This document shows, one piece after another, positions 2,967-45,300 of a stretch of 64,000 nucleotides of DNA. Source of the stretch: a virus. Every line of letters begins with the position of its first letter. Positions within the stretch are counted from its first letter, which is position 1. Both the position numbers and the translations under genes were made by a program. The notes beneath the pieces were generated by a model. That model made no database searches and was not told where the DNA came from. It saw only the letters and a program-made list of their open reading frames with translations. Location: positions 1 to 64,000 of the IMG/VR virus record IMGVR_UViG_3300008216_002531; one strand, given 5' to 3'.

Positions 2967-3514
2967 ACATCATTCCCACCTTTATCCTGCTTGGGGGATT
3001 AATACTCTGGTTCGTAATAGGAACTAAAGGGTACTGGTCGCTTAAAATGATTCTCATCACCATGACGGTGTGTTTTAGCCTATTCCTGTCACAGACCATG
3101 GAAGACGTGCGGGGGTGGCCTACGGACGATGAGCTTCCAAATAAGTTCAGAGTGCATTGGATAGTTATCAAGGAGCCAAGCAAAACGGATCATAATAAAA
3201 AGGGCGGGATATATCTGTGGGTAACGGATCTGGCCGGTGACGGGAAACAGCCTCGTGCCTACAGGTCTGAATACAGTCGCGAGAAACACGAGGACGCCCA
3301 GAAAGCCATCGGAATGATTATGGAGGGAAAGCCTGTCGCGGGTAGTCGCGGGGGTTCTGAGGGTGAAGGAGAGGGCGAGGGAGAGGGCGAAGGAGAGGGA
3401 GACGGCAAAAAGGGGCAAGGACAAGGAAATGGAACTGGCGACGGTAGCCTCAGTGATAGTCCCGAGATTATCTTTCATGAGCTACCACCGTCTAAATTAC
3501 CGGAGAAAAATTAA
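2963..3514 (+). CDS. Membrane protein with Gly-Glu repeat linker (third gene of the MotA-like module)
   Basis: Two N-terminal TM segments, (GE)n tract, coupled overlap. Confidence 0.6.
   Translation: MNIIPTFILLGGLILWFVIGTKGYWSLKMILITMTVCFSLFLSQTMEDVRGWPTDDELPNKFRVHWIVIKEPSKTDHNKKGGIYLWVTDLAGDGKQPRAYRSEYSREKHEDAQKAIGMIMEGKPVAGSRGGSEGEGEGEGEGEGEGDGKKGQGQGNGTGDGSLSDSPEIIFHELPPSKLPEKN
3359..3403 (+). repeat. Degenerate hexamer tandem repeat encoding (Glu-Gly)7
   Basis: gagggt gaagga gagggc gaggga gagggc gaagga gaggga. Confidence 0.8.
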
Positions 3515-5350: not shown

Positions 5351-5783
5351 AGAACAAAACCCATTTAGTTTTGCTTTTTATGATTGCGAAACTACAATAG
5401 CTACGCTTAAGACTGGAGATTATACGCTTCAGGGATACGAAGAAGTTATAGCTATAGAAAGAAAGAAAAGCACTTCTGAACTAGCTACTAACCTTGGCAA
5501 GCACAAAGATAGATTTGAGAGAGAAATGGAGCGCTTGTCTAAGTTTGATCATAAGTATATCGTTTGCGAATTTACAGAAAGCGATTTATTGCAGTTCCCT
5601 TTGAACTCTTCCATCCCCAAGCGTATTATTAAATATATCAGGATGAACGGCAAGTTCATGAGAAAACAGCTTTATAAGTACGAAGAAGACTATGGGGTTT
5701 CTGTTATATTTTGCGATGGAAAAGAAGAGGCTGAAAGCAAAGTGATAGATATATTTCAAGAGATAGTCAGACAACATGAGTGA
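5328..5783 (+). CDS. ERCC4/XPF-domain nuclease
   Basis: IIQDTREQ, LKTGDY, AIERK motifs. Confidence 0.88.
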   Translation: MIIIQDTREQNPFSFAFYDCETTIATLKTGDYTLQGYEEVIAIERKKSTSELATNLGKHKDRFEREMERLSKFDHKYIVCEFTESDLLQFPLNSSIPKRIIKYIRMNGKFMRKQLYKYEEDYGVSVIFCDGKEEAESKVIDIFQEIVRQHE

Positions 5784-7740
5784 TCTAAAAACCATTGAAG
5801 ATGCTTGGTTAAATATAGACATAGATGAGAAGAGTCTTTTCAATCCGCTGTCAATTCTTTCGTCTGAAGATCCAGATAAATTTCAGATGCATCTAGCTTG
5901 GTTCATGAGCAATCCTGAGTATTTTAGCTTTATAGTTAAGAATATTTTTAACATTGACCTTTTGCCTGTTCAAGCATTAATGCTAAAGGAGATGTGGAAT
6001 CGCAAGTTCCCCATGCTTATAGCGTCCAGAGGTTTTGGCAAATCGTTCATTTTGTCTCTGTACGCTATGATGAGGGCCGTTCTTTTATCTCCGCGTAAAG
6101 TTGTTATTGTCGGCGCTGCTTTTCGCCAATCAAAAGTTCTGTTTGAATATATGGAGACAATCTATAAAAACGCCCCCATACTTCGAGACATGATAACTTG
6201 CACTCCAAGACGCGATGTAGACAGATGCCAAATGACCATTGGTGACAGCACTATTATATGCTTACCGCTGGGTGATGGATCAAAGATTAGAGGCCAGCGG
6301 GCTAATGATATTATCGCAGACGAATTTGCGTCTATTCCTCGCGAAATATTCGAAAATGTTGTTGCGGGATTTGCTGCTGTAAGTTCATCCCCTATAGAAA
6401 ACGTAAAGAGAGTAGCGGCCCAGAAGAAGGCTCTTGAGCTAGGAAATGAGATCGAGGATGAAGAAGAAGTTTTGACTAATATTTCAAACCAAATTATTCT
6501 CTCTGGTACTGCTTATTATGATTTTAATCATTTCTCAGAGTATTGGAAAAAGTGGAAGTCTATAATAAAAAGCAGGGGGAGGAAAAAGCATCTTCAAGAA
6601 ATCTTTGGTGATGATAAAATTCCCAACGGGTTTGATTGGCGCCAGTACAGTATCATCAGAATTCCCTTTGAGCTTGTTCCAGAGGGGTTTATGGATGATG
6701 CTCAGGTAGCCAGATCTAGAGCCACTGTTCATTCTGGCATTTATGAGATGGAATTTGGAGCTTGTTTTAGTACGGATAGTCAAGGCTTCTTTAAAAGATC
6801 TCTTATAGAGACTTGTGTCGCTTCTTATCAAAATAACATTTCGCTGCCTAGCGGAGAGGTTGCTTTTGAGGCGGTTTTAAAAGGAAATCCTAATTGTAGA
6901 TATATATATGGCGTGGACCCCGCTTCAGAAGTAGACAACTTCAGCATTGTTGTTATCGAGCTACATGAAGATCACCGTCGTGTTGTTCATTGTTGGACCA
7001 CCACCAGAGCAGACCACAAGATTAAAGTTAAGATGGGCATTGTTAAAGAAACCGATTTTTACTCATATTGCGCTCGTAAAATTCGCGACTTGATGAAGAC
7101 CTTTCCGTGCGAAAGAATTGCTATGGATGCTCAAGGGGGAGGCATCGCGGTTATGGAGGCTTTGCACGACGGAGATAAAATAGAGGAGGGCGAGCTTCCG
7201 ATATGGGAAATCATAGACGACAACAAGGAAAAAGACACTGATGGAAATCCGGGTTTGCATATTTTGGAAATGTGTCAATTTGCTAAGTCTGATTGGTTGG
7301 CAGAAGGAAATCATGGCATGAGAAAAGATTTTGAGGACAAGGTTTTACTGTTTCCGTTTTTCGACGCTGTCTCTTTGGGTATTGCCGCTTCCGAAGATAA
7401 GATTGAAAAGAGAAAGTATGACACTTTAGAAGACTGTGTTATGGAGATTGAAGAGCTTAAAGACGAGTTGTCTATGATTGTGATGAGTCAAACTGCATCC
7501 GGCAGAGATAAATGGGACACACCAGAAGTTAAACTTCCGGGCGGTAGAAAAAGTCGTCTAAGAAAAGACAGGTATAGTGCCCTATTGATGGCTAATATGG
7601 CCGGTAGAACCATGCAGAGAACCCCGATTCCTCCTACTCACGAATTTACGGGTGGCTTTGCTGCAAGGGGGGATTCTCTGGATGGGCCGGATTTTATAGG
7701 GCCTGCGTGGTTTACAGAGGGTATGAAGGATATTTATTAA
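5776..7740 (+). CDS. terL: Terminase large subunit
   Basis: Walker A ASRGFGKS, IRGQRA, Walker B IIADE, nuclease GVDPA, C-terminal KDRYSA; lies before the portal. Confidence 0.92.
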   Translation: MSDLKTIEDAWLNIDIDEKSLFNPLSILSSEDPDKFQMHLAWFMSNPEYFSFIVKNIFNIDLLPVQALMLKEMWNRKFPMLIASRGFGKSFILSLYAMMRAVLLSPRKVVIVGAAFRQSKVLFEYMETIYKNAPILRDMITCTPRRDVDRCQMTIGDSTIICLPLGDGSKIRGQRANDIIADEFASIPREIFENVVAGFAAVSSSPIENVKRVAAQKKALELGNEIEDEEEVLTNISNQIILSGTAYYDFNHFSEYWKKWKSIIKSRGRKKHLQEIFGDDKIPNGFDWRQYSIIRIPFELVPEGFMDDAQVARSRATVHSGIYEMEFGACFSTDSQGFFKRSLIETCVASYQNNISLPSGEVAFEAVLKGNPNCRYIYGVDPASEVDNFSIVVIELHEDHRRVVHCWTTTRADHKIKVKMGIVKETDFYSYCARKIRDLMKTFPCERIAMDAQGGGIAVMEALHDGDKIEEGELPIWEIIDDNKEKDTDGNPGLHILEMCQFAKSDWLAEGNHGMRKDFEDKVLLFPFFDAVSLGIAASEDKIEKRKYDTLEDCVMEIEELKDELSMIVMSQTASGRDKWDTPEVKLPGGRKSRLRKDRYSALLMANMAGRTMQRTPIPPTHEFTGGFAARGDSLDGPDFIGPAWFTEGMKDIY

Positions 7741-21094: not shown

Positions 21095-21493
21095 ATGACA
21101 CAGTCGGAATACAACTATGACGATTTAATAAGATCGTCTCGGACATATAAAACAAATAAAGAAGATAAATACAAAGAAAGCTCGAAAGAGAAGCTTTATA
21201 AAATCGCTAAGAAAAAAATAGAAACTACTATGATAGGGGCTTTAAGCACCGTCGAAAAACACTTAGGATTTTTATGGGGTCACGATTCTCAAGAAGATCT
21301 TAGTCCTGAAGAACAGCATATTAAATCTATCTATGATATGATAAGATCTGAAATATTGGATAAAGGAAACAGCCAAATAAGAAACTTGGAATCTGAGATG
21401 TCTCATTACGAAATCAAATGGTTAAGATACCATATGAATTTACCATTAATGTCGATGGATCTAAAGGAGGAAGCCACCAATGGCGAAGATTAA
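21095..21493 (+). CDS. Hypothetical protein
   Basis: 132 aa coupled ORF in the tail region. Confidence 0.6.
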   Translation: MTQSEYNYDDLIRSSRTYKTNKEDKYKESSKEKLYKIAKKKIETTMIGALSTVEKHLGFLWGHDSQEDLSPEEQHIKSIYDMIRSEILDKGNSQIRNLESEMSHYEIKWLRYHMNLPLMSMDLKEEATNGED

Positions 21494-22361
21494 TAAACAG
21501 TTGGTTACAGGCAAGGATAACGACGGTAAGAAGCAAACCGTTGCTGTTATAAAGCCAAGACCCACACACACCAGAGAAAGTCAAAAGGTCTATAACAGAG
21601 TGTTTAGAGACGCCCTAGAGTCTGGAGCACTGTTGAGACAAAAGCTAGGCTCTTATATGGAAGAGCAGGGTCTGTGGAATGACGACAAGCAAAAAGAGTA
21701 CGATAAAACGCTTACGGCCATTCTAGATAAAGAAAAGACCCTAAAGAAGGGCGGGATCAAGCTGTCTGAGGCCAAGGATATGGCTATTCAAATGGCCGAA
21801 GATAGAGTGGCTCTGAGAGATCTAATCTCTGAAAAAACAATGATGGACGCCAATACGGCTGAAGGCCAAGCCGACAATACTAGGTTTAATTATTTGATGG
21901 CGTGTTGTATTGTTGATCCAGACACTGGGAAGCCTATTTTTGCTGACGAAGATGGCAACCCCAGTCTTGAAGCTTATGAAGAATCTGCTGATAATGAGTA
22001 CATTGCCGATGCTGCTAGCAAGCTGGCAGAAATGATGTACGGTCTGGACGATGATTATGAAGCCAACCTTCCAGAAAATAAGTTTCTCAAGAAGTTTAAT
22101 TTTGTGAACGATGATCTAAAATTGGTTAATGAAGAAGGCCAGCTAGTAGACACAGAAGGAAGACTGGTTAACAAGGATGGTAGGTTTATTAACAAAGATG
22201 GTGACTTTATAGATATAGAAGGAAATCCCGTCAGCGAAGACGGTGAGTATATAGTTGACGAACAGCCGTTTTTGGATGACGACGGCAACGTGTTGGTTGT
22301 GGAGGAAAAAACAAAGAAAAAAAGGACTTCAAAAAAAACACAAGAAACTAGTGCTTCGTAA
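21480..22361 (+). CDS. Candidate tail assembly chaperone with 7-aa repeats
   Basis: AGGAGG RBS; repeats LVNEEGQ/LVDTEGR/LVNKDGR/FINKDGD/FIDIEGN/PVSEDGE; directly before the tape measure. Confidence 0.55.
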   Translation: MAKINKQLVTGKDNDGKKQTVAVIKPRPTHTRESQKVYNRVFRDALESGALLRQKLGSYMEEQGLWNDDKQKEYDKTLTAILDKEKTLKKGGIKLSEAKDMAIQMAEDRVALRDLISEKTMMDANTAEGQADNTRFNYLMACCIVDPDTGKPIFADEDGNPSLEAYEESADNEYIADAASKLAEMMYGLDDDYEANLPENKFLKKFNFVNDDLKLVNEEGQLVDTEGRLVNKDGRFINKDGDFIDIEGNPVSEDGEYIVDEQPFLDDDGNVLVVEEKTKKKRTSKKTQETSAS

Positions 22362-22372
22362 GTAACGGATAA

Positions 22373-22423
22373 GTGGGTTGCTGGATAGTGTTATCTTTTG
22401 CACTACCGGTACACCCATTTTTT
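22373..22423 (+). terminator. Imperfect hairpin plus T6 (attenuator-like) before the tape measure
   Basis: GTGGGT/ACCCAT, GCTGG/CCGGT and TAGTG/CACTA pairings, then TTTTTT. Confidence 0.55.
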
Positions 22424-22436
22424 AATAGAGGTAGCA

Positions 22437-25400
22437 ATGGCCACTCCCTTCGTTTTAACGGCTAGAATTCAGACCGCCCTTGATACCGGTTCTCTCACGA
22501 GGGTCGTCAATCGGATAAGAAGAGAGATGGCGGCTAGACCGATTGAGTTAAAAGTCGTGGTGGATGATGCCCGCTTGAGGAGGCTGGCGACCGAACTGGG
22601 GACAGTTGATGCGTCCGCAAGAAAAGCTCAGGCTGGCATGGCTGGGTTTGCCAATTCGGTTAAACTCGCCGCTACGCGCTTCATGGCCTTCACTCTTGCT
22701 GCTTCGGTCATGATTAAGTTGTCCATGGCCTTTAGAGAGGGGTTTAAACAAGCCGCTGAGTTTGATAGAGAAATAGTCAGATTAACTCAGGTAACCGGTA
22801 AAAGCGCCCAAGGATTAAAACCGCTTGTCAGGGAGATTACAAATCTAAGTGAAAGTCTAGGAGTCTCTTCCTTAAAAATGGTCGAGATGAGTAGAATATT
22901 AGCCCAAACAGGAATGAGCGCTAAAGACACCGCCATTGCCTTGAAAGCTATAGCAAAAACAGAGCTAGCCCCCACGTTTTCTGATATAAAAAAGACTGCT
23001 GAAGGCGCTATCGCCGCCATGCGCCAGTTTAATATAGAAGCCAAAGATCTTGAGGCTACTCTTGGCGCTATTAACGCTGTTTCAAAGCGGTTTGCTGTTG
23101 AATCTGATGATATTATTACAGCTATTAGACGGACGGGTGGTGTATTTCAGGCTGCCGGTGGGCAGATAAACGAGCTTATAGCTATCTTTACCTCTGTTCG
23201 CGCCACCACTCGTGAAACCGCAGAGACCATCGCTACTGGTCTGCGTACTATCTTTACCAGAATTCAACGCCCCAAAACCATTAAATTCTTGAGGCAGTTT
23301 GGTATTGAACTTACTGACTTGCAAGGTAAATTTGTTGGCCCCATGGAGGCAATACGTAGACTGAGTGTTTCTCTAAGAGGCATGGAAACTACAGATCTAC
23401 AGTTTGGAAGAATCATTGAACAGCTTGGTGGCTTTCGTCAGGTTGGCAAAGTAATTCCAATGATTACAAAGCACGAAACAGCGGTTAAAGCTTTGGCTGT
23501 TGCTCAGGGTGGGGCGAATTCGCTAACCATAGATGCGGCAAAAGCACAAAAAGCCTTGCTTGTTCAGGTGGAAAAAGTTAAGGAAGAGTTCCACGATATG
23601 ATGCGCAAGATGTTGGCCAGCGAAGGTTTCAAGGCGATGATTTCGATGACCTTGAAGCTTGCATCCGCCATGATCAAGCTGGTTGAAAGTCTTGAGCCTG
23701 TACTCCCCATGCTCATGGCCTTATCCGCTATAAAACTTGGCGGCATGGCCATGGGTGGAATAGGGCGAATGAGGGTTGGGGGAATGGCTAAGGGTGGTGT
23801 TGTTCCCGGTGTGGGAAATAGAGACACTGTTCCAGCAGTTTTAACTCCCGGTGAATTTGTTATCAAGAAGAGTTCTGCTAAAAAGCTCGGGTATGATAAT
23901 CTTTCAGGTATGAACAAGTATGCCAAGGGCGGCGTAATTCATGCGACTGGTAAATTTGGTGGGATGTTTATTGATCCACACCTCATGGAAGATACGCCTG
24001 CAAAGGGGGCCTCGTATGCGGGGCCGCTAAGAGGGGCGCCTGCTCTAGCTAATAAAATTAATGCTGGCGCGATTCGTAAACAAGGAAAAGGTCGCGCTAC
24101 TCAAGTCGGGGCCGCGCTGGGAGCAAAACAGCGACTGGAGTTTCCGGGTGGTGGTCAGGAGCAGATGCTTAGGAGCTTGTCGCGACACAATCCCGAGGCT
24201 TATGCTGCTCTGTTGACCAATAGGGGAATAAAGGCTGGTTCGAGCTTGGCAGCGGTTGCAAAAGCGGCCCCCTTAACCGGCATGAGTGGAGGCGCGCTTG
24301 GAAAGTTTGGCTTCGGAAAGAAACAGATAGCATTATCTATGCAGCGAGCCGGTCTTTTTACCGGGGGTGCTCATTCAGGGACGTTAGCGGAGAGATCAAA
24401 AGTCAAAAACAAACAGGGGCAGGTTACGCCAGCCGATTTAACAAGTGGCGTAGTGAAGATGATGGGTGATCCGTTCCTGTTTGGGGTTAGTTCTGTTACA
24501 AGGAAGGACTTTGCGGATAAGTATAAGCTACATACGGACCAAATGCTTCAAGACTTTGCTAAAAATACCCTCCCACCCGCGTTGGTAGAAAATATTAAAC
24601 AGAGGGCTGGTGGCAAGTCGGTCGAAGGACACATGTTTGAGGCGTATTTATTGGCTAAATCAGGGCAGGGGGCGATCTCTACCGATTCTTCTGAAGATTT
24701 TGATTTTTTGAAAGGTATGATTACTCAGGATTTGGCATCACTGTTTGGCGATCCTATGGGAACGCAACTGAAGGGGTTTTCTGCTTTAGACGCAAAAAGA
24801 ACAAAGGGCGGGACCGCTGTTTCGTCTCTTGTTAAAAAGGCTATGAATACTTTTGCTTCTATGGGGAAAGTATCAGGTTTGAACTTGCAGTTTACACCCG
24901 GTCCCGGCGATTTTGGGAAGAATACTGCTCCATTCATGCTGGCGGCTACTGGTGGTTCTGTTGGAAGTGGAAGTGACACAGTCCCCGCCCTTCTCACACC
25001 CGGCGAGTTTGTGATTAATAAAAAGTCTGCTAGTAGAATTGGATTAGGCACTTTGAGCAGTATGAATCGCTATGCTGCTGGTGGTGTCGTTACAAGCGGT
25101 AGGCATAATTACGGCGTGATGCCCGGCGGCCCAGCGCCGCCTCTCCCCCCCACATCACCAGCCGGACCCGGAACCGGCAGTGGCGGTGGCGGTGGCGGTA
25201 TGGGCGGCATGGGTATGATGATGATGCTGACGATGATACCAGCGTTGATACCACAACTAACAGAGCTAGGGGGAGCCACCGAGGAAACCACTCAGCAGGT
25301 TCAAGACTTTAGTGGCATTATGATGGGTGCCACCATGGGCTTGATGTTGTTTGGGGATAAACTAATGACGGCTGGCGGTGGAATAGCAGCGGGTGGTCTT

Positions 25401-28400
25401 CTGATTACTGCTGCCGCTGTCGCATGGGCGCACTCGCAAGAAAAGGCTGCCGCAAGAGCCAAGGAGGCGGCTATTAAAAGTGGTAATCGCTCAGTGGCTA
25501 TGGCAAAAGCAGAGGAAGAAGCTAGGGCTGCGGAGGGCAAAAAAATGGGGGCGGTGGTTGGGGTGGTATTCACGGCATTGGCACTCTTGGGCAAGGGGCT
25601 TATCGTAGCGGCGGCGGCTATAGTTGGTTGGCCCGTTGTGATTATTGGTCTGATAGCTGCCGGACTTGCTGCTGCTTTTGGTGGAGTAGAATTAGGCAAA
25701 ACCTTGGCTGACGCAGAGGCAGAAGCGGCTAAGAAAATGGTGATCGCAAGAATGGACGCTATTGATGCCACAAAGAAGTTTGCCGAGGGCATGAGGAATA
25801 TTGAGAAACAGATTAAATCTGGTAATTTAGCTGCGGCGTCAGCAGGATTTGTTACCGAAGTTACGGAGCTATCGAAAGCGATAGAGAAAGCTAAGCGTTC
25901 TGGAATGAGTCTTGATAGCGAAGAGTTATCCACGATGACCGACAGAATGTCTGATGCGGGAGCCGCAACGGCAACACATTTGTCTAGACTTGCAGTGGAA
26001 GCAGCTAAAGCGGGCGGAGATATTGGGCTTGTTATTGGGTCGAACAAAGAACTGATACAAGCTCACGGAACGGCGAAGTCCGCAGTCATGGCTCTTGCAG
26101 CAGCGCAACTTAGAGCATCGGCCATAGCTATGCCATCGGGAACCGCAAAGGAGAGGAAAGCGCAAAATGCGGCCCTTAAGAGGGCTTCAGATATGGACGT
26201 AAAGGCGGCTATGATTAGGTTTGACGCCGAGAAGGACATAAAGGCCCAGATGAAAGCAGATTTCGAGCAGCAGAAAAGACATACGGAGGCCCTAAAGGCC
26301 AATACAGCGCTGTTCCTTCATCAGGCAAGAATTGTAAATGATTTGGGAACTGTTATGACGGCGCTGAGTGTTGCAACAATGGAAGCTGCCGACACCATGA
26401 GGGGGATTTCTGCGGCGGCTTCATTGGGAATGGGCAAAGTGGGAGCGACCAAACTCAAAGGAACGCGAGGAAAAATGCTTAGTGGGAATCTTGCTGATGC
26501 CGATACAGCGGAATATGCAAATTTGCTGAATCAGTTGTTTGCGCCATTAGGTCAACTGGGGGCTACTATTGGCAAAGAACTGACCCAAGCACAGGATGCT
26601 TTTTCTGGAGCGTCAGAATTTGTGGTGCAACACACTGACGCAAAGACGGGACAAATGATGAAGGGCTGGGAGGGGAAGTTGAAAAAACACCTTGGGAATG
26701 TCCCAGCAGCGCTTAAGGAAAAGATCCTAACATCTATCAAAGATATCGAAGGGCCGAAAACGCCACAAAAGATTAAAGAAGCGCTAAAGGAAGCTGAAGG
26801 TTATCTTGACCCTGTGAAGAAACAGGCGATGGAACTATACAAGTTGCAACTTGATCATGTGAATAGATTAAATTCTGCTTACGACAAACAGAGAAAATTA
26901 TTGGGAGCTATGGCAAAAAGCCAGAAGGACTGGGTCAGTCACGGATTCAAAGCCATGGCTGTTATGAGAAAACACATGGGGATGGAAAGTAGTCTGGCGC
27001 TTGCGCAGGGACAACATGCAGCCGAGCAGCAGGCTATCTTGGGTCAGGCGGGGCTTGGGGGTTTGGGTGGCAATATTGCGGTAATGGGAAATCATTTACG
27101 AAATACCAACAAAAAGATAGTTGCGGCTGAAAAAAGCTTGGAGGGCATGGTAGGAGATCCGACTAAAGCGGGATTAGCTGCTGATAACTTAGCCAGACTT
27201 AAAAATGAGTCTGAGACTTTGACCAAAGCTCTTAAGCACGCTGGCAATATGGCTGGTCAAAGGGCGGTGATTGAAGAGAAAATAGCCAAGGCTAAGGCAG
27301 AAAGGGAGACCAGAAAAGGCTTGCTTGAAGAATTTACGTTTGGTTCTGGAAAAGAAAGAGGAAAACTGGCGAAAGACCTCAAGGTAACCCAGTTTGCTGC
27401 TGCTGTTGGTGACATGGATAAGATTCCGGGTAAACTGCGCGGCACTGTTCTAAAAACTCTAGACAGGTTTAAAGACACTCTTATTCCCGGCTCTGGGGGT
27501 AGGACTGGAGAGGAAGTTAAAAACCAGTTGATGGCCAGACAAGCCCAGAAGATGGGGGCCAGTCCGCAACAAATCCAGCGAATCTTGATGCGCGGTCGAG
27601 AAGAAGAGATGCTTATTGCCATGCTTGGTCAATTATTTATGGCAGAATCAGCAGCTAGAATGGAACTTATGAAGACTCAGAAGGATATGCACATAGTGCT
27701 GACTAATGATATTCAGAAATTGCATATGGATTTTGTTAACAAGCTTACGCAAGTTTTACAGCAGATTCAGGGCGGTGGTGCTGCTGGTGCTCGTGGTAAT
27801 GTTAACGCTGGCCGTCAGTTTCCCGGCGGCGCTCCCGTCGGCGCGGGTGGAGCATGGGTTCCTGTGGTTGGTGGGCAGGGTGTGGCCGGAGGGGGAACGG
27901 CCGGGCAGCGAGCGGGACGAATTCAGGCAAACCAAGCCCGTGCTAATGCTAGAGCGGCACAAGAAGAGGCTGATAAAGCCGCAGCCGAAAAGAAGGCGGC
28001 GGATGAGCGTAAAGATGCGGCGGATAAAGCAAAAGAGAAAGCCGACCGCGATCTGGCTGTTTCGGTGGAGGCAGCGAGACAGAGAGCGGCGGCAAATACG
28101 TATGATGCAGTTCGGGCCAGACAGCGACAACGGAGACCGGGTGAGAGTCCGGTTGATGCTCACTTTCGAAACCTTAGAGAAGGGAATCCCGGTCCCGGTG
28201 GCTACAGGGCTGCCGGTGGCGTAATATACGCCCAAGGAGGATTCCAAGCGCGGGGTACTGACACTGTTCCCGCAATGTTAACTCCCGGTGAGTTTGTTAT
28301 CAGGAAATCTTCTGCTCAAAAGATAGGTTATGGCAATCTACATTCTATAAATCGCTATGATCAGGGTGGGAAAGTTCACAAACACCCACACTCCGGGCGC

Positions 28401-30161
28401 TTGATAAGAAATAGAAATGTGAGATCGGATTCTGTGAGTAACGAGGCCAACACGTTCAACCAAAGGTCGAATTCGTTTTTAGGAGACGTGGCTGATGTTG
28501 CTTTCGGAACAGGGAGTGGAATAGGCGGGAGCCGAGACGCATACAAGGACACCGCCCTCGGCGTAACGTGGAGAGGCGGCATTAACGCTCTAGACTCAAG
28601 TATGCAGCAGGGGGCTAGGAGCCTCGGATCTTCATCCACGATCTCGCAACTAGGCTTAATAGACGAGGCTAAGAGAGAGGGGATAACGGTCCCGCAACTT
28701 AAACGCAGGAAGATGATTGAGAAGCGGCAACTCGGAATGACCCGAAAGGAAGTTGCTGCGGACAATGACAAATTGCTTGAGGAAGAGCACGGTCGCGCCG
28801 CTATCTATAACTTAAACGAAAGGAGAAGGCAGGAGAAGGAGGACGCAGCGGCAAAGACAGCGCGACTCGATAAGGAGAGAGCGGATAGAGTAGCAGCAGA
28901 GAGAAAGAGATCGGGTATGGATAGACCGGGTTACGGAGACGGAGACCGCCACTCCGTCACCGAAACCGCCGAGCAAAGGGACAAGAGATACGCCCAAGAA
29001 GCGATGGAAAACAAAGCCTATTTGGCACAGCAAGGTATTACCGCACAGACCTCAAAGGATACGGTGGCGGCTTATAACAAACGAGTTGCAGGGCAGAGTA
29101 GTACCTCACCAAAGTTTTTTAAAGATCAGCCTCGGCCCTACGAGAATCTCCCTGAGGAGGAGGCTCAGGCAAAACATACAGCCGGACTTAGAAAACGTCT
29201 TAACGAAGAACACCCCTCAATGGCTCCGCTAGGGGAAGATGTTGGTCGAACATGGCAGCAAAGACAAAGAGATTTTGATGCCAAGATGGGGATAGATAGT
29301 TTCCGTGATTCCAGCGTACCTTTGCCTGACATCCCCGCACCGGTGTTAGGCAAGAAGGGCAGACTTCAGAGGAAGTCTGAAAGATTTAGAGGCAGTGCTG
29401 ACAGGCGTAGGGCTGCGGCGAAGGCGAAGCAAGAGGCGTGGCTAGCTAAGAGAGAAGAGGTCACGGGCCGCAAGCGCGGTACTCCTACCGGGCACACCGC
29501 GCTGAAGCCGGGGTCGGTTACACCTGTTAATTTGAAGGCAAAATGGAAAAAGGACAGTAAGACTTTCCATGAACGAGCAAGGAAGAAAGCACAACATGAA
29601 GGTTATAGAAGTGCAGAGGCGAGATCGTTCCACCTCAGAGAGAAACGAAGAGCTTACGTGCATCAACAGGGGCGCGGAGATCCGGGCCTCGGGGCGAGAG
29701 GCCGTGGGGGTGTGAGAAGGCGCATGCCGAGATACGGCGGACGCCGTCAACGGCGCATCGACGATAAGTACGAAAAGGAAGCTGGATACCCCGATAGAGG
29801 GGTGATTGATCCGCGCTTGGGTGCTGGCGGTGGCTCGCGAGGGCAAGGTCTTGGTGGCGGTGGCGCGCAGTTCAGTGTTCCAGCACCGCAGCAGGGTTTC
29901 GGCAGGGAAGTGAATGTTTCTGGAATTGCGACTCAGGTTCAAGATGCCTTGGGACCAGTTATGGCTCAGTTCCAAGGTGTAAATGTTGAGCACAATATAA
30001 ACCATCAAGGTTTGAATGTTACTGGTGGTGATGGAATTGGAAGCGCTATAATTCAGCAAATTCTACCACAAATTGTAGGTTTGATAAAAAATATTACTAC
30101 GCAATTAATAAATAACTCATCACAAGACGCTACTGGAAAAATAACTACAAGGCCGGGTTAA
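22437..30161 (+). CDS. Tape measure protein (TP901-type core) with internal repeats and extra domains
   Basis: AAEFDREIVRL..VTG, LAQTG, A..FAVES.D, IATGLRTIFTRI core; Ala/Gly-rich helical and TM segments; start refined to ATG 22437 (GAGG RBS). Confidence 0.9.
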   Translation: MATPFVLTARIQTALDTGSLTRVVNRIRREMAARPIELKVVVDDARLRRLATELGTVDASARKAQAGMAGFANSVKLAATRFMAFTLAASVMIKLSMAFREGFKQAAEFDREIVRLTQVTGKSAQGLKPLVREITNLSESLGVSSLKMVEMSRILAQTGMSAKDTAIALKAIAKTELAPTFSDIKKTAEGAIAAMRQFNIEAKDLEATLGAINAVSKRFAVESDDIITAIRRTGGVFQAAGGQINELIAIFTSVRATTRETAETIATGLRTIFTRIQRPKTIKFLRQFGIELTDLQGKFVGPMEAIRRLSVSLRGMETTDLQFGRIIEQLGGFRQVGKVIPMITKHETAVKALAVAQGGANSLTIDAAKAQKALLVQVEKVKEEFHDMMRKMLASEGFKAMISMTLKLASAMIKLVESLEPVLPMLMALSAIKLGGMAMGGIGRMRVGGMAKGGVVPGVGNRDTVPAVLTPGEFVIKKSSAKKLGYDNLSGMNKYAKGGVIHATGKFGGMFIDPHLMEDTPAKGASYAGPLRGAPALANKINAGAIRKQGKGRATQVGAALGAKQRLEFPGGGQEQMLRSLSRHNPEAYAALLTNRGIKAGSSLAAVAKAAPLTGMSGGALGKFGFGKKQIALSMQRAGLFTGGAHSGTLAERSKVKNKQGQVTPADLTSGVVKMMGDPFLFGVSSVTRKDFADKYKLHTDQMLQDFAKNTLPPALVENIKQRAGGKSVEGHMFEAYLLAKSGQGAISTDSSEDFDFLKGMITQDLASLFGDPMGTQLKGFSALDAKRTKGGTAVSSLVKKAMNTFASMGKVSGLNLQFTPGPGDFGKNTAPFMLAATGGSVGSGSDTVPALLTPGEFVINKKSASRIGLGTLSSMNRYAAGGVVTSGRHNYGVMPGGPAPPLPPTSPAGPGTGSGGGGGGMGGMGMMMMLTMIPALIPQLTELGGATEETTQQVQDFSGIMMGATMGLMLFGDKLMTAGGGIAAGGLLITAAAVAWAHSQEKAAARAKEAAIKSGNRSVAMAKAEEEARAAEGKKMGAVVGVVFTALALLGKGLIVAAAAIVGWPVVIIGLIAAGLAAAFGGVELGKTLADAEAEAAKKMVIARMDAIDATKKFAEGMRNIEKQIKSGNLAAASAGFVTEVTELSKAIEKAKRSGMSLDSEELSTMTDRMSDAGAATATHLSRLAVEAAKAGGDIGLVIGSNKELIQAHGTAKSAVMALAAAQLRASAIAMPSGTAKERKAQNAALKRASDMDVKAAMIRFDAEKDIKAQMKADFEQQKRHTEALKANTALFLHQARIVNDLGTVMTALSVATMEAADTMRGISAAASLGMGKVGATKLKGTRGKMLSGNLADADTAEYANLLNQLFAPLGQLGATIGKELTQAQDAFSGASEFVVQHTDAKTGQMMKGWEGKLKKHLGNVPAALKEKILTSIKDIEGPKTPQKIKEALKEAEGYLDPVKKQAMELYKLQLDHVNRLNSAYDKQRKLLGAMAKSQKDWVSHGFKAMAVMRKHMGMESSLALAQGQHAAEQQAILGQAGLGGLGGNIAVMGNHLRNTNKKIVAAEKSLEGMVGDPTKAGLAADNLARLKNESETLTKALKHAGNMAGQRAVIEEKIAKAKAERETRKGLLEEFTFGSGKERGKLAKDLKVTQFAAAVGDMDKIPGKLRGTVLKTLDRFKDTLIPGSGGRTGEEVKNQLMARQAQKMGASPQQIQRILMRGREEEMLIAMLGQLFMAESAARMELMKTQKDMHIVLTNDIQKLHMDFVNKLTQVLQQIQGGGAAGARGNVNAGRQFPGGAPVGAGGAWVPVVGGQGVAGGGTAGQRAGRIQANQARANARAAQEEADKAAAEKKAADERKDAADKAKEKADRDLAVSVEAARQRAAANTYDAVRARQRQRRPGESPVDAHFRNLREGNPGPGGYRAAGGVIYAQGGFQARGTDTVPAMLTPGEFVIRKSSAQKIGYGNLHSINRYDQGGKVHKHPHSGRLIRNRNVRSDSVSNEANTFNQRSNSFLGDVADVAFGTGSGIGGSRDAYKDTALGVTWRGGINALDSSMQQGARSLGSSSTISQLGLIDEAKREGITVPQLKRRKMIEKRQLGMTRKEVAADNDKLLEEEHGRAAIYNLNERRRQEKEDAAAKTARLDKERADRVAAERKRSGMDRPGYGDGDRHSVTETAEQRDKRYAQEAMENKAYLAQQGITAQTSKDTVAAYNKRVAGQSSTSPKFFKDQPRPYENLPEEEAQAKHTAGLRKRLNEEHPSMAPLGEDVGRTWQQRQRDFDAKMGIDSFRDSSVPLPDIPAPVLGKKGRLQRKSERFRGSADRRRAAAKAKQEAWLAKREEVTGRKRGTPTGHTALKPGSVTPVNLKAKWKKDSKTFHERARKKAQHEGYRSAEARSFHLREKRRAYVHQQGRGDPGLGARGRGGVRRRMPRYGGRRQRRIDDKYEKEAGYPDRGVIDPRLGAGGGSRGQGLGGGGAQFSVPAPQQGFGREVNVSGIATQVQDALGPVMAQFQGVNVEHNINHQGLNVTGGDGIGSAIIQQILPQIVGLIKNITTQLINNSSQDATGKITTRPG
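23784..23933 (+). repeat. TMP repeat 1 (AxGG..DTVPAxLTPGEFVIxKxSAxxxGxxxLxxxNxYAxGG)
   Basis: Three copies seen in the translation. Confidence 0.9.
24942..25085 (+). repeat. TMP repeat 2
   Basis: AATGG..SDTVPALLTPGEFVINKKSASRIG..LSSMNRYAAGG. Confidence 0.9.
28203..28370 (+). repeat. TMP repeat 3
   Basis: YAQGG..GTDTVPAMLTPGEFVIRKSSAQKIG..LHSINRYDQGG. Confidence 0.9.
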
Positions 30162-30167
30162 TAACTC

Positions 30168-32540
30168 ATGGTAGTCGCAGTATCTGGAATTAATATAGGA
30201 TTAACGATCTTTGGGGCCGTTGATCCAAAGCTGGGGAACAAGCTATTCCCATCGGGAGACAATATCGACTTTGGGTATTGGCGAAGCTGGAAAGACGATT
30301 CTCTCACATCCAAGTCTGGTATATTTAACCAGATATACCTACCGTTTGATGGAACAGGGGTAAAGAGGAGTAATAAGCCAGAGGTTTTTGATAGGGTTAA
30401 TAACACAAATATCATAGCTTCTGGCGGCCATTGGGCAAAAGGGGGGGAAGACGGTATCCCACAAGGGGCCATGGGCACGAAGGATCTCAATTTTGTCCCT
30501 AGGTCTATTTATCTAAATGAAGGCGATTATATTAATGTTGGAAGTGGTAATACTTTAGGATATGCAAATAAATTTACCGTCTATGCTAAATTAATGCCCA
30601 GTGGCGAGCAACTTCACACTAGGATTATATCTAAACATAGTATAAACCCCGCACAAATGGTGCTCGGAACTGATCCCCAAGGCCTGTACTATATCAGGGC
30701 TGACGGAGAAGACGATGATGGAGGCAATGTAGCCTATTATGCCAAGAGCGACAAAGAATATTCGCTATACGAGTTTCCCACTCAGGTAGTTGGTGTCTTT
30801 GGTTACACAAGCGAAGGCACAGGGGCCGATATAAAAAACTCTCTCGCGCTTTATGTAAACGGAAAATTACAACAGGATGTATCTGCAAGATTTAGCAGAA
30901 GCTCTCCAGAAGACAGGCGGGCCGATGATATTAGGGTCGGTGAAGGAGAGGCTGGCGACGGCGATGGTTATAGGGGTTGGATTGACGAAGTTGGTGTTGC
31001 TAATTATGTGATATCTCCGTCTTCTGTTCAAAGGCTGTATGATAACACCTTTGCTTTGCCCGACTTTATTAATGAAAACTTGGGAGCTAGCGGGGCATAT
31101 AACTTTAGCTTCAGTCAAGCTTTTGACGCAATGGACACAAACTATATTGAGTTCATGGTTGATTCTGGAAATTCTCAAGGTCAGGTGGGGGGAGCGTTTG
31201 ATAAGTCTCTATGGGGAAACAATCTTTATTCTGTTTCTTCTAATATTTATTTTGGGATGGACGATCTCAGGAGTGATGCCTATCAGGTAACTGATAATAT
31301 TTATGTTGATATGTGGATTAAACATGATACTAACCATTTTAGCGGTGGATATCTTCAGCCAACTATTCAAATACAAAAACCGCACGATACACACTATCAG
31401 AATATTGACTGGAAGGGAACAACAGTCTTTTTGCCGTCGAGCGTTAAGAGATTTCAAAATATTAGATTTAGTGGCGCCCTAGATCAAACCCATCCTTACT
31501 CTGGTGGAAACAATGTATTTCACCAAGACGGAAAAAGGGAGTCCAGAACAGATTTTAATTTGCACGAATTAAACATTTCCTTGTCTTATCCCAGTGGAAC
31601 TTCAGAAGCTACAGAAACACAGTTTCGTCGCAATAAACCATTCCAAAGTAGCTTTAAGGTATACTCAGCCAAAGTAAATGTTGACGCTTTTGTGATACCG
31701 TCTACTGGCACAGAAGAATTAGATCTATATACCTCTGGAGATACGGCGTCTTCTAAAACTGCTAATATTGACCTATATTTAGATGCTAAAAATATTGTCG
31801 GTAATATAGACTTATATTTGCAACATGAAATTACTAAGCTTCAAGGTAGCGGCCTGCTTTCTTCTGCTCCTTTGGTTTCTACAAACAAGACCGCAACTTT
31901 ATATACCAAAGCAGGTTTATCCGATGATTTGAAGCTAAATAGCTTGAACCTCTTTACTAAGAGTGTTCCGGGTCCGGGCGCTTCAGGTATTGACACTGCT
32001 TCAATAGATTTGTTTTTGTGGCCTTCACAGTATGGAACAAGCGGTGTTAGGAAGTGGGTCGATCTTTTCTTAGATGTTGCCGATCCAGTTCCACCAGCTT
32101 CTGGATTTTTCTCTCCTTCTGGAACGATGAACTTGTTCCAGAAAGGGCCGAGTAAAGCACCTCTTACTAAAACGTTAGAATTATACGTACCCTCTCCAAC
32201 AAGCAGCCGTGGCGCCGACTCAACGTTCTCCAGTAATGAAATCAGCCTCTATGCCAAAAATGAGGCGGTTGCTCTGACCAATGATATTCCTTTGTATGCA
32301 AAGACAGACCAAGCGGGAACCAAAAGCGGAACTTTGAATTTGTATCTGTTAAGGAAGTCGGGAGAATTTAATCAGATCGAGTTATTCTTGAAGGGGCCAT
32401 ATCCATCAGGGACAATCTCCTTATTTAATGTAGGGCATACTATTAAGTCCTCCAGTATATCTTTATATGCTAGCGGGCTAGGAAAACTAACACACAGTAC
32501 AACCCCCCTTGTCACTAAAGGTTATACAAGTTCAAGCTAG
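30168..32540 (+). CDS. Tail protein with LamG/ConA-like domain and C-terminal xxL[FY] repeats
   Basis: FTVYAK..IISK..LALYVNG..IRVG..YRGWIDEV (LamG-like); about 15 [LIMV]xL[FY]-type units at the C-terminus. Confidence 0.65.
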   Translation: MVVAVSGINIGLTIFGAVDPKLGNKLFPSGDNIDFGYWRSWKDDSLTSKSGIFNQIYLPFDGTGVKRSNKPEVFDRVNNTNIIASGGHWAKGGEDGIPQGAMGTKDLNFVPRSIYLNEGDYINVGSGNTLGYANKFTVYAKLMPSGEQLHTRIISKHSINPAQMVLGTDPQGLYYIRADGEDDDGGNVAYYAKSDKEYSLYEFPTQVVGVFGYTSEGTGADIKNSLALYVNGKLQQDVSARFSRSSPEDRRADDIRVGEGEAGDGDGYRGWIDEVGVANYVISPSSVQRLYDNTFALPDFINENLGASGAYNFSFSQAFDAMDTNYIEFMVDSGNSQGQVGGAFDKSLWGNNLYSVSSNIYFGMDDLRSDAYQVTDNIYVDMWIKHDTNHFSGGYLQPTIQIQKPHDTHYQNIDWKGTTVFLPSSVKRFQNIRFSGALDQTHPYSGGNNVFHQDGKRESRTDFNLHELNISLSYPSGTSEATETQFRRNKPFQSSFKVYSAKVNVDAFVIPSTGTEELDLYTSGDTASSKTANIDLYLDAKNIVGNIDLYLQHEITKLQGSGLLSSAPLVSTNKTATLYTKAGLSDDLKLNSLNLFTKSVPGPGASGIDTASIDLFLWPSQYGTSGVRKWVDLFLDVADPVPPASGFFSPSGTMNLFQKGPSKAPLTKTLELYVPSPTSSRGADSTFSSNEISLYAKNEAVALTNDIPLYAKTDQAGTKSGTLNLYLLRKSGEFNQIELFLKGPYPSGTISLFNVGHTIKSSSISLYASGLGKLTHSTTPLVTKGYTSSS

Positions 32541-39306: not shown

Positions 39307-42300
39307 ATGGCTTGTAAAGGCTTTTCTACATGTTATGGCTATGGCTGTGGTGGTGGCGCCGTAGAGCAAACAGCGGTTGGCTATTCCGACTACCCCATGA
39401 CCACTACCGGTGATTCCGGGCGTGGGCCGCATCCAAAGTGTCAGATTCCGCCCGAAACATTTAGTTTTGAGATTGGCGGATGGCATGGTAGCCTTGAGAT
39501 GGTCGGGGCCATGGGCGAGCTAGATCGTATAAACGTAGGGTGTCAGCACAGTAATTGCTCATGTCCAGACCCAAAGTGCAAGTGCATGAGAACAGATATG
39601 GCGGGTAACACAAATTTTCAAGGGCATATGCAGACAAAGGATTGCCTTGATCAAGGACATTGCATAAACCCGGATATGACAGTTACGGGGTGCTGCGAAG
39701 ATCCTGTCACAGGAGTAAAACCCAATATCAAGACCGGCTTTGGCACGGGGTTGAACCAAGATGAATGCGCGTGTAGAGGGGGTACTTGGAGTTCATGGTG
39801 TGACGCATGGACGCAGGACGAATTAGACACTTGCAATAAATGTGTATCATCTTGCCCTCCTTATAAAATAGGAAACTCAATTGGGTTAGGCTTTGAATAC
39901 AGTCAAGGCTGTTTACAAGCTCCTGTCCCGATAGATGCAGACGGGAATAGATGCTGTTGTTCCGGTGATAGTCCTATATGCGATAGTTGCCCCAACCACT
40001 GTGTGGTATGGCAAGGGCACACAGAGAACACTTGTGGTCCCCCCGTTTTATATTGCGACGAGGATAGTTGCGGGCCGGAAAGAAAGCCGAACAATCTTGG
40101 TTATGGCGTCACTATTCCTTGGGAACTAACTTTAGTTTGTATCGCTCCAGCCAAGACTGCTCATGGCCATCTTCAATATCCTCCAGATTACGGTTCTTGG
40201 CTTTTGCATGTTGTGGCTTGGAGGCCCGTTGAAGACAATGTGCTGGGAACTGAGCCTTGTAGACAGTGGACATTTGGCAATAAACACGGCGTGGCAAGCG
40301 ACGATGGCTTTTTGGATCTGGGATCTGCGTGTAAGGATGGCTCATGGACAATAAGCGTGGATATTCCTGTGCAGCCCGACGAAATAAAAACTAGTTGTGG
40401 TTGTGAATGCCCATGCCGAGAACAAATTACCAATGTATTTGATGGTGAGGAATGCGATTGTTTCAAACCAGATTGCGTTACTGATGGTTTTGAATGTCTT
40501 CATGGTACTAAAGAGCCTCCAGATTGTGATGCTAGTTGTCTGGAGCCTATACCCGCTTGCCCAGCGGCGAATGCTTTATGGGCGGGTTTACAAGCCCCAC
40601 ATCAGTATTGTAATGATGGAAAAGGGAATAAACCCGAACTCATGGGGATGATCGAGAATCTATGTCAGGCGTGTTGCAAACCCTGCAATGAGTTTTGCGA
40701 AGACCAGTGTGTATGTGAAGAAGCACAAGCCAAGGTTGGTCCTTCGTCTATCTGCGGAACAAAAACCCTTAGTAATAGAAATATTGCTGGTCATGGGTGT
40801 TCTAAAGACCCTAAGCCATCTTTCCCCGGCTCGACTAGCACTCCAAAAGAGGGTGACTGTTGTAATCACCACTACGGTACTCCCACAGGCGAGACATCAC
40901 TCCATACGGATTGTATATGGGAAAGTTATTATGAGTGTGGATGTCTTTCGGAAGATGAGGCTAATGGAGGAACAATACAACTTACAATTCAGGCTAATGC
41001 GCAACGTGGCTCGACCATTACCACGCTTTCTCACTATGAAGATCAGAATGGAAACTCAGGCACGGGATTAGGTTTTACCCCAGTAGGCAGTGATACACCC
41101 GGAAAAACAATAAATGAGTGTGGAGCGGTGGATGCCATTTGTGATCTTTCACTTAAACATCCTGATACGGATGGATGTCGGTATACAAAATGGCCAGATC
41201 CATCATGTGAAACTCCGCTTCCTCCCCCCGACATAAGAGAAGGGGTTAGATGTCCTAACTCATTAGTGTGGGAACAACCTACTTATGGATATCAATGCAC
41301 TTTGCCGGGTGGATCTAACAATGGAGCAATGGGTGCAGATTTTCCTGTTAAGCCGGGCCTTTGTCTTAATGCTCGCCCCGAACGTTGGCACTTAAGACCA
41401 CAATTTACTCATCCACATCTTTGGGCTATCTGCCACAAACCCGGCCCCGGAGAACCCGCCCCGCCATGTGATCAACCAGCGGACAGAGATGCTGAGTGTG
41501 TTGAGCATCCAGAAGTTACCAGATTTGTAGCCGACATAGGTAATATTCATGGGACTATAGGAGAGTGTAATATCTATTGCGAGGGATGGTGGGAAGTTGT
41601 AGTAGATTGCTTCAGAGCGTGGACATTAGATTTGTGCGAAGCCTGCTTGGGGGATTGTTGGACTGACGCCAAGATAGTAGGGGCCAAACCTTGGTGTTGT
41701 GGGCATTGTGATGAAGGAGATCATTCTAGCGACTGGGGCTGTGACGGAAAGTGGCCCGGAATTTTCCCATTTTTGTATTATCATCCACCTGAAGATATAT
41801 TTTGTCCGTATGGAGAATATTTTCCAGCTATAAGCTGTCCTACTGTGCCCAATTCTCCAGCAGCTACTATGCTTGGTCAATCAGGACAGTTATATTATCC
41901 CGGTAATATTACTAAAAAGTGGACCTCTTGTTGTGGTAATCAGCCAGCGGGCTGTGAATGCTGTTATCCGTGTGGACACCCAGCCTACGATCCTACCTGT
42001 CGGATAAGAAACTTAATTAGTGGAAATATTTGTGATATTTGTTGGGAGTGCATGTGTAATAATAGTAAGTCCGAGGGAATTAATGCTAATCAAGTTTATA
42101 TGTCCAACGACTGTCCAAACGGTTGCCAGCAACCAGATTGGCCAGCGCCACCTGCTTCTTTGACAACAGGGACTATTCAGTGTAGTAGTGGTATGGATGT
42201 GGTATTTGCTATTGATATCACCGGCAGCATGGTGAGCCAAGTTGAAGCCATTAGAGCAGATGTTGACAGATATGTAAATATTATTGACGAGGCTTCCGAT

Positions 42301-45300
42301 GGTAATTACAGGCTTGGCTTGGTAACTTTCAAAGAAGACTCAGCCGATACGATCACGCACACCTCTTTGGGTTATGAAAACGCTATATCTTTTGAGCAAG
42401 CCCTAGATTCTCTTGAGCCTGCCGGTGGTAGCGGCTCTCTAGCAGAGGCTCATGTCGATGGTGTTCGGTCGATTCTTGATGGAGATGTTGGAAGTTGGAT
42501 CGAGAAGGAAGATCATCGTAAGATTATTATTGTTATGACAGATGTTGAGCCGAATGAGGGTTATGAAGCAGCAGATGTGCAAGCTCAACGCGCTAAAGAG
42601 CAGGGCGTTATAATAAGCTCTATTCTTTTCATTCCTATCTCCGGCGAGGATGAAGACGAGGCTGCACGATCTCTTGAAAATTATGCAACAGTTACCGGTG
42701 GTGTATTTGGAAAATCTACCGCGAGGGGCACTGGGGACGCAATTCAACATTCTCTTTCTATGTGTCAGGGTGTAACCTTAGCCGCCACCTCTTCAGCCGG
42801 TGGGGGCGAACCCACCGGACAGTGCATTCAGGTTGTCCAAGACGGCGGTGGAGAGGTTGCGGGTTGTGGACAATTTATGCAAGAGATGGGAGACATACCA
42901 GAAACGTGTCCTGCCCCCATCTACTGTCCAGAGGGTCTTATTCCGTACAACAAATATGGAGGCGGATATTGCCATGAAGGCGATTTTTGTTGTCAATGCT
43001 TGAGAGAAAAGAGCCATTGGCTCGCCGTACCGGCCACGAGGCGAATTGGCCCCACAACGAACCAGCTTGGTTGGAAGTTAGGAGCACCCGTCCTGTATGA
43101 TATGGCTTGGTATCCTCTTAAAGAAGCCGTGTGTATACTAGAGCCGTGCGGGATGGGAGAATCTGGAGAGGGTGAACAACCCGGTGGTGGCCCCGGAGAG
43201 CCGCCTGTTTTGTATGATAAAGGATCTATAAAAGTTTCTGTGACCCTAATGAGAGAGGGGACTTCTACAGAAGTAGGCGAAGCCTTAAAAATACACGATC
43301 ATCAATCTACAGGAGAAATTATTGGCGTTACTGGAAAGGGACAACCTGTTAAAATTACTTCCAGAATACAGGTTGGTCAACTAGAGATTAACCTAGCTCC
43401 GGGGGATCCTGTTTTTATAGGGATTATGAATGACACCCAAGGCAAGCCGTTTGGCTCTAAGGTGGGGGGCAATAATGCAGCTAATGGGCAATTTGTAGTT
43501 CTTGCTGTTTCTGGAAATGAGTTTACTATAGCGTTACCCGGTGGTGGACCGGTAATAGGCGATGGCGATTGGACGGATGGTGGCACTTGGCATTATTACG
43601 ACCCCAATGATGCTGGTGCTAGTTGCACTGGCCCACATCAACAATGTGCGTATAGTTTTGAGTTTGATCGGGGTGGTGTAAACGTTGGGACTTCTCCAAA
43701 AGTACTTCCCGAAGCTTTGTTTATTGAGTGTGTAGAGGAAGCGTTTGTTGAATGGTCTAATATCTTAGAAAGCCTATGGTCTCCTCGCGCAGATTACACC
43801 GCTACAGGTAGAAGACATGGTAGTTGGGCCAGTGGCGGTTCGTCACCTTCGGATCCTCAACATCCATTCCCCGGTAGTCACAATATAAATCCCGGCCTGA
43901 CCCCCCAAGGATCGCCGGGACCACAAGCCAACAGCCACCAGTTGAGAGCTAGATTTATAAATCTAGGCCATGAACCAGCCATTAGTAATGAGGTTCCTAG
44001 TAATAAAGTAGATCGATATAACGTTGCAGAATGGAGCAGGGCGACCAACTACCCACTGGTTGGTAGGTGTGTTACAAGGCTTCCCGGTGGAGATACAGCG
44101 GGTGGCGTAGTCCCAGAAAGAAGATGGGAAAACATGGCTTCTTGTATAACAAACGGGCATTGTTATGCTAAAGGCTGTTCTGCCAATGATATGAGAGCTA
44201 CCTCTGTGCAGCTATCTAGTAGTAATAAGTGCGAGGAAATGGCTCATGCCGCCAGTGGAACGTCCTACGACAACCCCAAAGACTGCTTATCGACAAAATA
44301 CTATGCATGTCTTACTCACCCAAAAATAGAAGTCCTGCGATGGATTTCAGGGGAAGCGTTTGGGGATCCAGTAGATTCCGACGCCGATGGCGCTGCGGAT
44401 TTGTTTCCAGACGTACCTTTGAGGTGGTATCTAGATCCAAAATATGTGCGAGAAGATATCGGAGACGAAGATTGTTGTAATCACGTAGATGGTTATTGGG
44501 AGGAGATTGAAGGGGACTGGTCTTCTGACTTTGGAAATGGACAGGGGATATTTAATCCCGGTTTTTCAGAATTATTTCCGTGCATACCGAAAAGTGCAGA
44601 GTGTTGTCAAGGCACGGTTTCTTGCGTGTCTCCAGCGGGAGATCATTTTCTCACCCCGACCAACACTTATGTTCCCTCCTCATGTTGTAAAGAGTATGAG
44701 CAGAAATACGGCCAATGTCTTGGTGACTATAATTTAGATGGCATTATGGATGAGATGGCGGGGTGTGACTACGACTGTTGTGGGTTTGGACTCGCTGGCT
44801 GGTGTGTCGACAAAAACGACCCCAATAACATATATTGGTCTACTGCAAGTTGTCCCGGTTGCGGAGGTAAAGACGCTTGCGATAAAGGAAGCGGATTAGC
44901 CCGTCGAGGATGCACAGAAACATTGTCAGTATGCGGCGATGGCAAACCGACAACCGTTGGAACAGATGCTCAAACTTGCGCACCATTGCGATGGCAACAG
45001 ACCCAGAGAGTCCTTAAAAATGATATCGGCACAGCGGGAAGTTTCGAAATAGCATTAAGATTCCCCGGTTCAAATATTGGAGACCCCCTTGAGAGAACTG
45101 ACTGTGATCTTACTGATTCACTCCTGTTTGCAGTAGGGGACTTTATAAAAATTGGCAATGAGTATATGGAGGTTACTTCTTCTAATCTTACCACCAACAA
45201 ACTGTCTGTGACTAGGGGTGTTGGTGGGTTTGGCGCGGATCCGTCGTCATCCTTTCGAACAGGACACTCGGCAGGAGACAGCATTTATCTCTGGCTAAAT

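Follow-up and report, generated by a model that had tools for sequence, protein, structure and literature searches.

Phage tape measure proteins (TMPs) enter the host ahead of the DNA. The window of uncultured phage DNA analysed here, 64,000 nucleotides covering positions 1 to 64,000 of IMG/VR virus record IMGVR_UViG_3300008216_002531, encodes a long TMP in which the string DTVPAxLTPGEFV occurs exactly three times, at amino acids 476, 860 and 1955 (nucleotides 23823, 24975 and 28260). What are these repeats, and why do they stand where they do? An earlier reading made from the letters alone (the sequence-only reading) took them for processing or recombination junctions that make the TMP a modular effector-delivery polyprotein. 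Judged by profile comparison, the repeats are copies of an ancient, widespread and unnamed TMP module, the same one that forms residues 732-785 of lambda gpH. Alignments of relatives indicate that in related phages the segment between the first two copies is a cassette swapped at the module edges. Residues of the TMP are numbered from an in-frame TTG at 22398, and its parts are as follows.

22398..30161, + strand: TMP open reading frame with the in-frame TTG start, 2587 amino acids from the TTG
22437..30161, + strand: TMP gene, 2574 amino acids from the ATG; the database copy, P0002, is identical
22836..23432, + strand: TP901-type TMP core domain (PF10145, amino acids 147-345), inside the conserved N-terminal ~450 amino acids (S0)
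23778..23945, + strand: module R1 (family profile, E 8e-25), which closes the conserved core
23946..24935, + strand: S1, a hypervariable insertion slot of about 330-335 amino acids between R1 and R2
24480..24851, + strand: S1c, an unclassified conserved domain inside S1 (amino acids 695-818, ~125 amino acids, with G..FE / FDF / DAK / KK..N)
24936..25097, + strand: module R2 (family profile, E 8e-23), a conservation island between S1 and a Gly/Pro/Met-rich linker
25098..28202, + strand: S2, hydrophobic and Gly/Met-rich at first, then a long region rich in Ala, Lys and Glu
25545..25697, + strand: strong membrane-type hydrophobic segment (amino acids 1050-1100, Kyte-Doolittle 19-residue mean up to 2.67)
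28203..28382, + strand: module R3 (family profile, E 2e-24), the sole copy kept in the closest relatives
28383..30158, + strand: S3, the charged C-terminal segment (594 amino acids; K+R 18%, D+E 12%)

The module is a unit of ~55 amino acids, with 26 invariant positions across the ~60 aligned columns of the three copies. It opens with [FY]AxGGxV, continues through a hairpin-like core (G.G.D.VPAxLTPGEFV) and two short helices ending in L..MN, and closes with a second [FY]AxGGxV. The edges are of the [FY]AxGG type (MAKGG and YAKGG in R1, AATGG and YAAGG in R2, YAQGG and YDQGG in R3), and both are conserved as A-x-G-G-x-V. A search of all six frames of the window with the family profile gave no module copy beyond R1-R3. 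The cores of the three copies are 60-73% identical as DNA and 27-59% identical at third codon positions, which indicates that the copies are old and conserved as protein rather than recent DNA duplications. Between proteins, R1 is 68% identical to R1, while R1 and R2 within one protein are 57% identical, no higher than between proteins. The copies are thus positionally orthologous, and each is kept by its own purifying selection. Concerted evolution and recent duplication are ruled out both by the third-position divergence and by these R1-R1 and R1-R2 identities.

No Pfam or NCBIfam model matched the module. Its profile aligns with lambda gpH 732-785 at an hhalign probability of 95% (E 4e-8), in a part of gpH that lies outside Pfam PF09718 (gpH 627-701) but is covered, in lambda, by TIGR01541. 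A search of PDB sequences with the module (hmmsearch) found the lambda TMP (8iyk_H) with both alignment A1 (E 8.6e-6) and alignment A5 (E 4.4e-4); A5 also picked up 8zdo_S, the TMP of mycobacteriophage Douge, with two module copies (E 4e-9). The module occurs in 157 phage records, mostly as part of actinophage TMPs and often at two places per record, and in many PHROG TMP families. In the protein collection, 7,520 of 8,000 scored candidates carry it at E<=1e-5, so that it is present in at least 7,520 protein clusters. The sequence-only reading had described three repeats of ~50 amino acids with AxGG-like edges and had noted that the motif occurs in other phage TMPs, and both statements are borne out by these results. 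The module itself is not described in two papers on actinophage TMPs (PMC1796659, PMC13033339).

A search with the whole TMP found 629 relatives of 1.4 to 4.3 thousand amino acids, in which the common part was only the N-terminal ~450 amino acids, at ~50% identity. In IMG/VR, 545 related loci were found. Counts of architecture given here refer to the best 120 of the 629 relatives. S0 is the only segment common to all 120. They carry between one and six module copies each, at conserved positions: R1 lies at amino acids ~450-520, directly after the core, in nearly all of them, R2 follows 100-1000 amino acids after R1, and a further copy lies ~1,100 amino acids on. The last module ends a median of 112 amino acids before the C-terminus, and 50-150 amino acids before it in 92 of the 120. 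R3 is the positional counterpart of the single copy in lambda, yet in this TMP it lies 594 amino acids from the C-terminus, outside the lambda-like range of ~70-150. Only the last ~140 amino acids of S3 (29733-30155) are common to the closest relatives, P0003-P0005, whose S2 is 41-53% identical to the one here. Set against the median of 112, this indicates that the sub-clade has expanded its tip-proximal end.

Among 1.84 billion (1.84e9) representatives, the S1 segment found here has seven relatives only, all of them TMPs or TMP fragments. An identity profile of 57 TMP pairs with 85-99% identical cores shows where conservation is lost. Mean identity is ~0.9 in the core and R1, falls to ~0.4 within ten residues of the R1 end and across S1, exceeds 0.9 again at the first residues of R2, and is ~0.5 after R2. 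Individual pairs show the same thing more sharply. P0039 and P0053 are 95% identical in S0, have no BLAST similarity in S1, and are 69% identical in S2 and 98% in S3, and pairwise alignment of P0069 with P0070 gives the same pattern. On the evidence of their alignments, such pairs show replacement of S1 rather than drift. The clearest case is the pair of loci L053 and L082. Their DNA is 99.1% identical over 8.8 kb up to amino acid 522, within R1 (470-523); their S1 segments, of 200 and 173 amino acids, are unrelated; and identity returns at 98.2%, for 4 kb, from amino acid 724, the first codon of R2 (724-777). S1 alleles also disagree with the backbone. P0039 and P0137 are 86% identical in S1 but only 72% in the core, whereas P0039 and P0053, with cores 95% identical, have unrelated S1 segments. 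Pairs in which S1 is more similar than the core number 11 of those tested; none occurred among the first 120 proteins, and the cases appeared only when more proteins were added.

The slot can also be absent. P0003, P0004 and P0005 have cores 65-76% identical to the one here, joined directly to S2. They are without R1, S1, R2 and the Gly/Pro linker (amino acids ~455-930) as one unit, which in this TMP sits inside a Gly/Met-rich stretch. The nearest relative that has the R1-S1-R2 block, P0006, is 89% identical to this TMP in S0 and 31% in S1. Taken together, the alignments show S1 cassettes swapped at the module edges in relatives, and by extension the same exchange would apply to the phage studied here. 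The sequence-only reading had proposed collecting homologous TMPs and asking whether the inter-repeat segments are swapped, and had called the repeats recombination junctions. In the collected homologues the segments are neither invariant nor collinear, so for the S1 slot the reading as junctions stands. Its support comes from relatives, through the 57-pair profile, L053/L082, P0039/P0137 and the loss of the block; a direct swap in this TMP was not seen.

Could the modules instead be passive conserved islands, with S1 merely evolving fast under diversifying selection or relaxed constraint? S1 usually keeps the S1c domain (86 of 121 TMPs), in many close pairs S1 is not replaced but diverges by degrees (30-80%), and the 11 pairs with S1 more similar than the core are few. 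However, point divergence cannot explain L053 and L082, in which unrelated S1 segments of different length lie between flanks that are ~99% identical. Exchange is also favoured by the incongruence of S1 alleles with the core and by R1-S1-R2 being cleanly present or absent as a block. We therefore rate the passive explanation the least probable of those considered.

S1 is not arbitrary filler, since it contains S1c. This domain was found with an iterated hidden Markov model in 86 of 121 TMPs, and 89 of its 91 occurrences lie in slot 1. In this TMP it ends 31 amino acids before R2. In alignment A4 (36 sequences) G55, E59 and D80 are invariant and K111 nearly so; in alignment A6 (44 sequences) the invariant residues are G42, E46 and K112, while D67 and K98 (the Lys of DAK) are nearly invariant. 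S1c has residues in the order E, D, (D/E)xK, an order that recalls PD-(D/E)xK nucleases, while no test supported that fold. The weak AlphaFold2 (AF2) model of S1c, with a predicted local distance difference test score (pLDDT) of 61, is mostly helical. Foldseek on the PDB gave no hit to this model at E<=0.001, and VIA-align reached only Z<=5.1, with generic helices. Pfam searches of each member and a profile search of the PDB were empty, and the ESM Atlas gave no usable match. A model of R1-S1-R2 built from seven sequences was unusable (pLDDT 39). The sequence-only reading had placed the repeats at domain boundaries, and the partition into PF10145 core, S1, hydrophobic and long region, and charged tail is confirmed. 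Its description of S1 as non-helical is unconfirmed, both AF2 models being of low confidence.

Enzymes do occur beside modules in other phages. In P0077, an ADP-ribosyltransferase domain (PF03496, above the cut-off) occupies residues 966-1177 in the S1 slot and ends six residues before R2 at 1183. In Gordonia phage Bunnybear gp16, an SLT domain (1543-1633) overlaps the start of a module at 1628. Other module-bearing proteins have SLT, ADP-ribosyltransferase or LysM domains, and catalytic domains are also present in P0162 and P0171. The inter-repeat segments of this TMP matched no enzyme family in Pfam, PHROGs or NCBIfam, nor did anything beyond the core. The cargo of the sequence-only reading is thus supported only in other phages. 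Its wider picture of an effector-delivery polyprotein stays a hypothesis, because cargo is seen only in other phages and lambda is the sole precedent for processing.

Lambda gpH loses a C-terminal piece of ~14 kDa through a cut in a glycine-rich region whose site is unmapped (PMC12617516). This maturation yields gpH* and a second product, gpHC (Tsui and Hendrix 1983, as cited in PMC12617516), which remains attached to gpI (PMC12617516). From calculated masses, a fragment of 14 kDa would imply cleavage near gpH 712-720, 12-20 amino acids upstream of the module, while a cut at the first GG of the module (residue 737) would give 12.2 kDa. On this calculation the module adjoins the cleavage region or forms its border, and is part of gpHC. 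Processing of TMPs is common and can remove an internal segment (Piuri and Hatfull, PMC1796659). The TP901-1 paper (PMC5099701) does not mention processing.

These data raise the possibility that cleavage takes place at the Gly-Gly edges of each module, either as the tail matures or once the TMP has been ejected. The TMP would then be a polyprotein that releases S1 (~40 kDa), a body with the membrane and coiled-coil regions, and a C-terminal piece bound to the tip. The glycine-rich position of the lambda cut, the precedent for internal removal, the conservation of A-x-G-G-x-V at both module edges, and enzyme domains lying directly against modules would all fit. No cleavage site has been mapped in any module carrier, however, and a cleavage site would need far fewer than 55 conserved residues. 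T5 pb2, the other TMP known to be cut, was tried as a second cleaved carrier of the module and gave no match. No protease family was recognised in the TMP or among ten neighbouring proteins, most of which match nothing. We regard processing as a possible role of the module, though on balance an unlikely one.

We lean, with modest confidence, towards a different explanation, that the modules are lambda-type joints whose edges bound the exchanged S1 cassettes and that they act as a Gly-hinged adaptor for spliced-in globular segments. R1 and R2 fence S1, which lies in the Gly/Met-rich stretch linking the conserved core to the membrane-active region. R3 stands ahead of the tip-proximal C-terminal part, in the position of lambda's single copy. 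In relatives, S1 cassettes are exchanged, gained or lost at the module edges, so that the slot diversifies and the ruler backbone is left intact. The adaptor would presumably be needed at every point where a TMP takes in a globular segment that is not part of the ruler; PF03496 in P0077, the SLT domain in Bunnybear and S1c in this TMP all adjoin modules. By analogy with lambda, the module may also mark maturation cuts.

Several observations weigh against this joint-and-adaptor explanation. First, all of the swap evidence comes from relatives, and this TMP contributes only its divergence from P0006 and the presence or absence of the block. Second, a conserved island beside a fast-evolving segment will put homology breakpoints at the edge of the island, whatever its function. 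Third, L053 and L082 have a second replaced patch at amino acids ~2051-2391 (L053:13363-14382), between modules 3 and 4 and off the module edges, so not every mosaic boundary in a TMP uses the module. Fourth, the module is found outside TMPs. It forms the C-terminus of pelagiphage HTVC103P gp79 (L003:3885-5177; 431 amino acids, module at 362-424), whose gene lies between those for portal and capsid and adjoins the former. In cyanomyophage Bellamy, gene 12, a neighbour of the baseplate hub genes, has the module after a lysin-like region. To link the module with ruler inserts alone would therefore be too restrictive. Fifth, the parts of the TMP that carry the module are unresolved in the cryo-electron microscopy maps of lambda (PMC12617516) and Douge (PMC13033339). 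The AF2 model of S1c, built together with R2 from 36 sequences (pLDDT 61), is confident only in the two module helices (~80). Complex prediction of three module copies scored 0.02, which is not evidence either way.

Some of the same observations could point to an anchor. The module might bind the host envelope after ejection, at the peptidoglycan or the membrane, and so position lytic or effector domains and the TMP channel. Its presence in the pelagiphage and cyanomyophage proteins, its disorder in the virion maps, and its joint occurrence with SLT domains, lysin-like domains and the LysM-bearing P0211 are consistent with this. The beta-alpha-alpha-beta pattern of the module looked like that of LysM, but a LysM-like reading was rejected, as hhalign against E. 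coli MltD gave a probability of 0.2%. No binding family matched in Pfam or NCBIfam. An anchor seems very unlikely to us.

A bolder reading combines exchange with processing. The S1 slot could be a dedicated diversification cassette of ejected tail proteins, its modules acting at once as arms for recombination and as sites of Gly-Gly maturation. At injection, each phage lineage would then set free an S1 protein of its own in the host envelope or cytoplasm. The released protein would be the unclassified S1c domain with its conserved Glu, Asp and Lys here and an ADP-ribosyltransferase or lytic enzyme elsewhere, and the cut that turns gpH into gpH* would be the single-module version. We think this reading quite unlikely.

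By its profile matches the protein that carries the modules is a TP901-type phage tail tape measure protein (PF10145, 95.6 bits with a cut-off of 33.2; TIGR01760, 89.1 bits with a cut-off of 28.8). Its gene stands downstream of that for the terminase and belongs to a single + strand block of large genes. At 2574 amino acids its product is that of the longest gene of the tail module, and it contains a membrane-type hydrophobic segment (amino acids 1050-1100). Most neighbouring genes have no family match. The region 24001-30000 of the TMP gene has a G+C content of 49-53%, compared with 39-46% in the flanking genes, a rise that probably reflects Gly/Ala-rich coding rather than foreign origin. Upstream of the TMP gene, the open reading frames 21095-21493 and 21480-22361 overlap; a programmed frameshift between them was considered and rejected, as the second is equipped with a Shine-Dalgarno sequence and an ATG of its own and no slippery site is present. 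Directly after the TMP gene, 30168-32540 encodes a protein of 790 amino acids with a concanavalin A-like lectin/glucanase domain (PF13385, amino acids 118-288), which is likely a distal tail or receptor-binding component. Further downstream of the tail genes, 39307-47361 encodes a 2684-amino-acid protein with a von Willebrand A domain (PF00092, amino acids 964-1122, E 2.5e-11) and nothing else recognisable. A nucleotide-sugar epimerase (3514-4539; phrog_540, E 2e-73) is encoded upstream of the terminase gene (5776-7740).

Which parts of a TMP serve as ruler, as channel and as payload is largely unknown, and the lambda gpH cleavage has gone unmapped for forty years. An abundant module with no Pfam or NCBIfam model that spans lambda and marine, actinobacterial and cyanobacterial phages could serve as a landmark for maturation cuts, for natural cassette exchange and for sites that tolerate foreign domains. 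Such sites would be useful both for annotation and for laboratory phage engineering. S1c, in turn, is an unclassified conserved domain that is putatively delivered by many uncultured marine phages.

In the modular theory of phage evolution, genomes exchange segments as mosaics at conserved boundary sequences. The transitions in L053 and L082, from ~99% DNA identity to unrelated sequence at short conserved stretches, are of this kind. They differ in that the boundaries lie within one gene and are copies of one selected protein module that fences a dedicated slot. Lambda gpH offers the closest single-copy parallel, having one copy of the same module, a glycine-rich stretch before it and a gpI-binding C-terminal piece after it. 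Its module lies 68 amino acids from the C-terminus, a distance similar to that in most homologues of the TMP studied here, although in this TMP the distance is 594. Lambda also has no fenced insert, and its core is PF06791 rather than PF10145. The actinophage TMPs (TM4 gp17, PMC1796659; Bunnybear gp16; Douge gp16, PMC13033339) resemble this one in being long and in having two or three module copies. Their insert is a recognised enzyme with peptidoglycan hydrolase motifs, whereas S1 here matches none.

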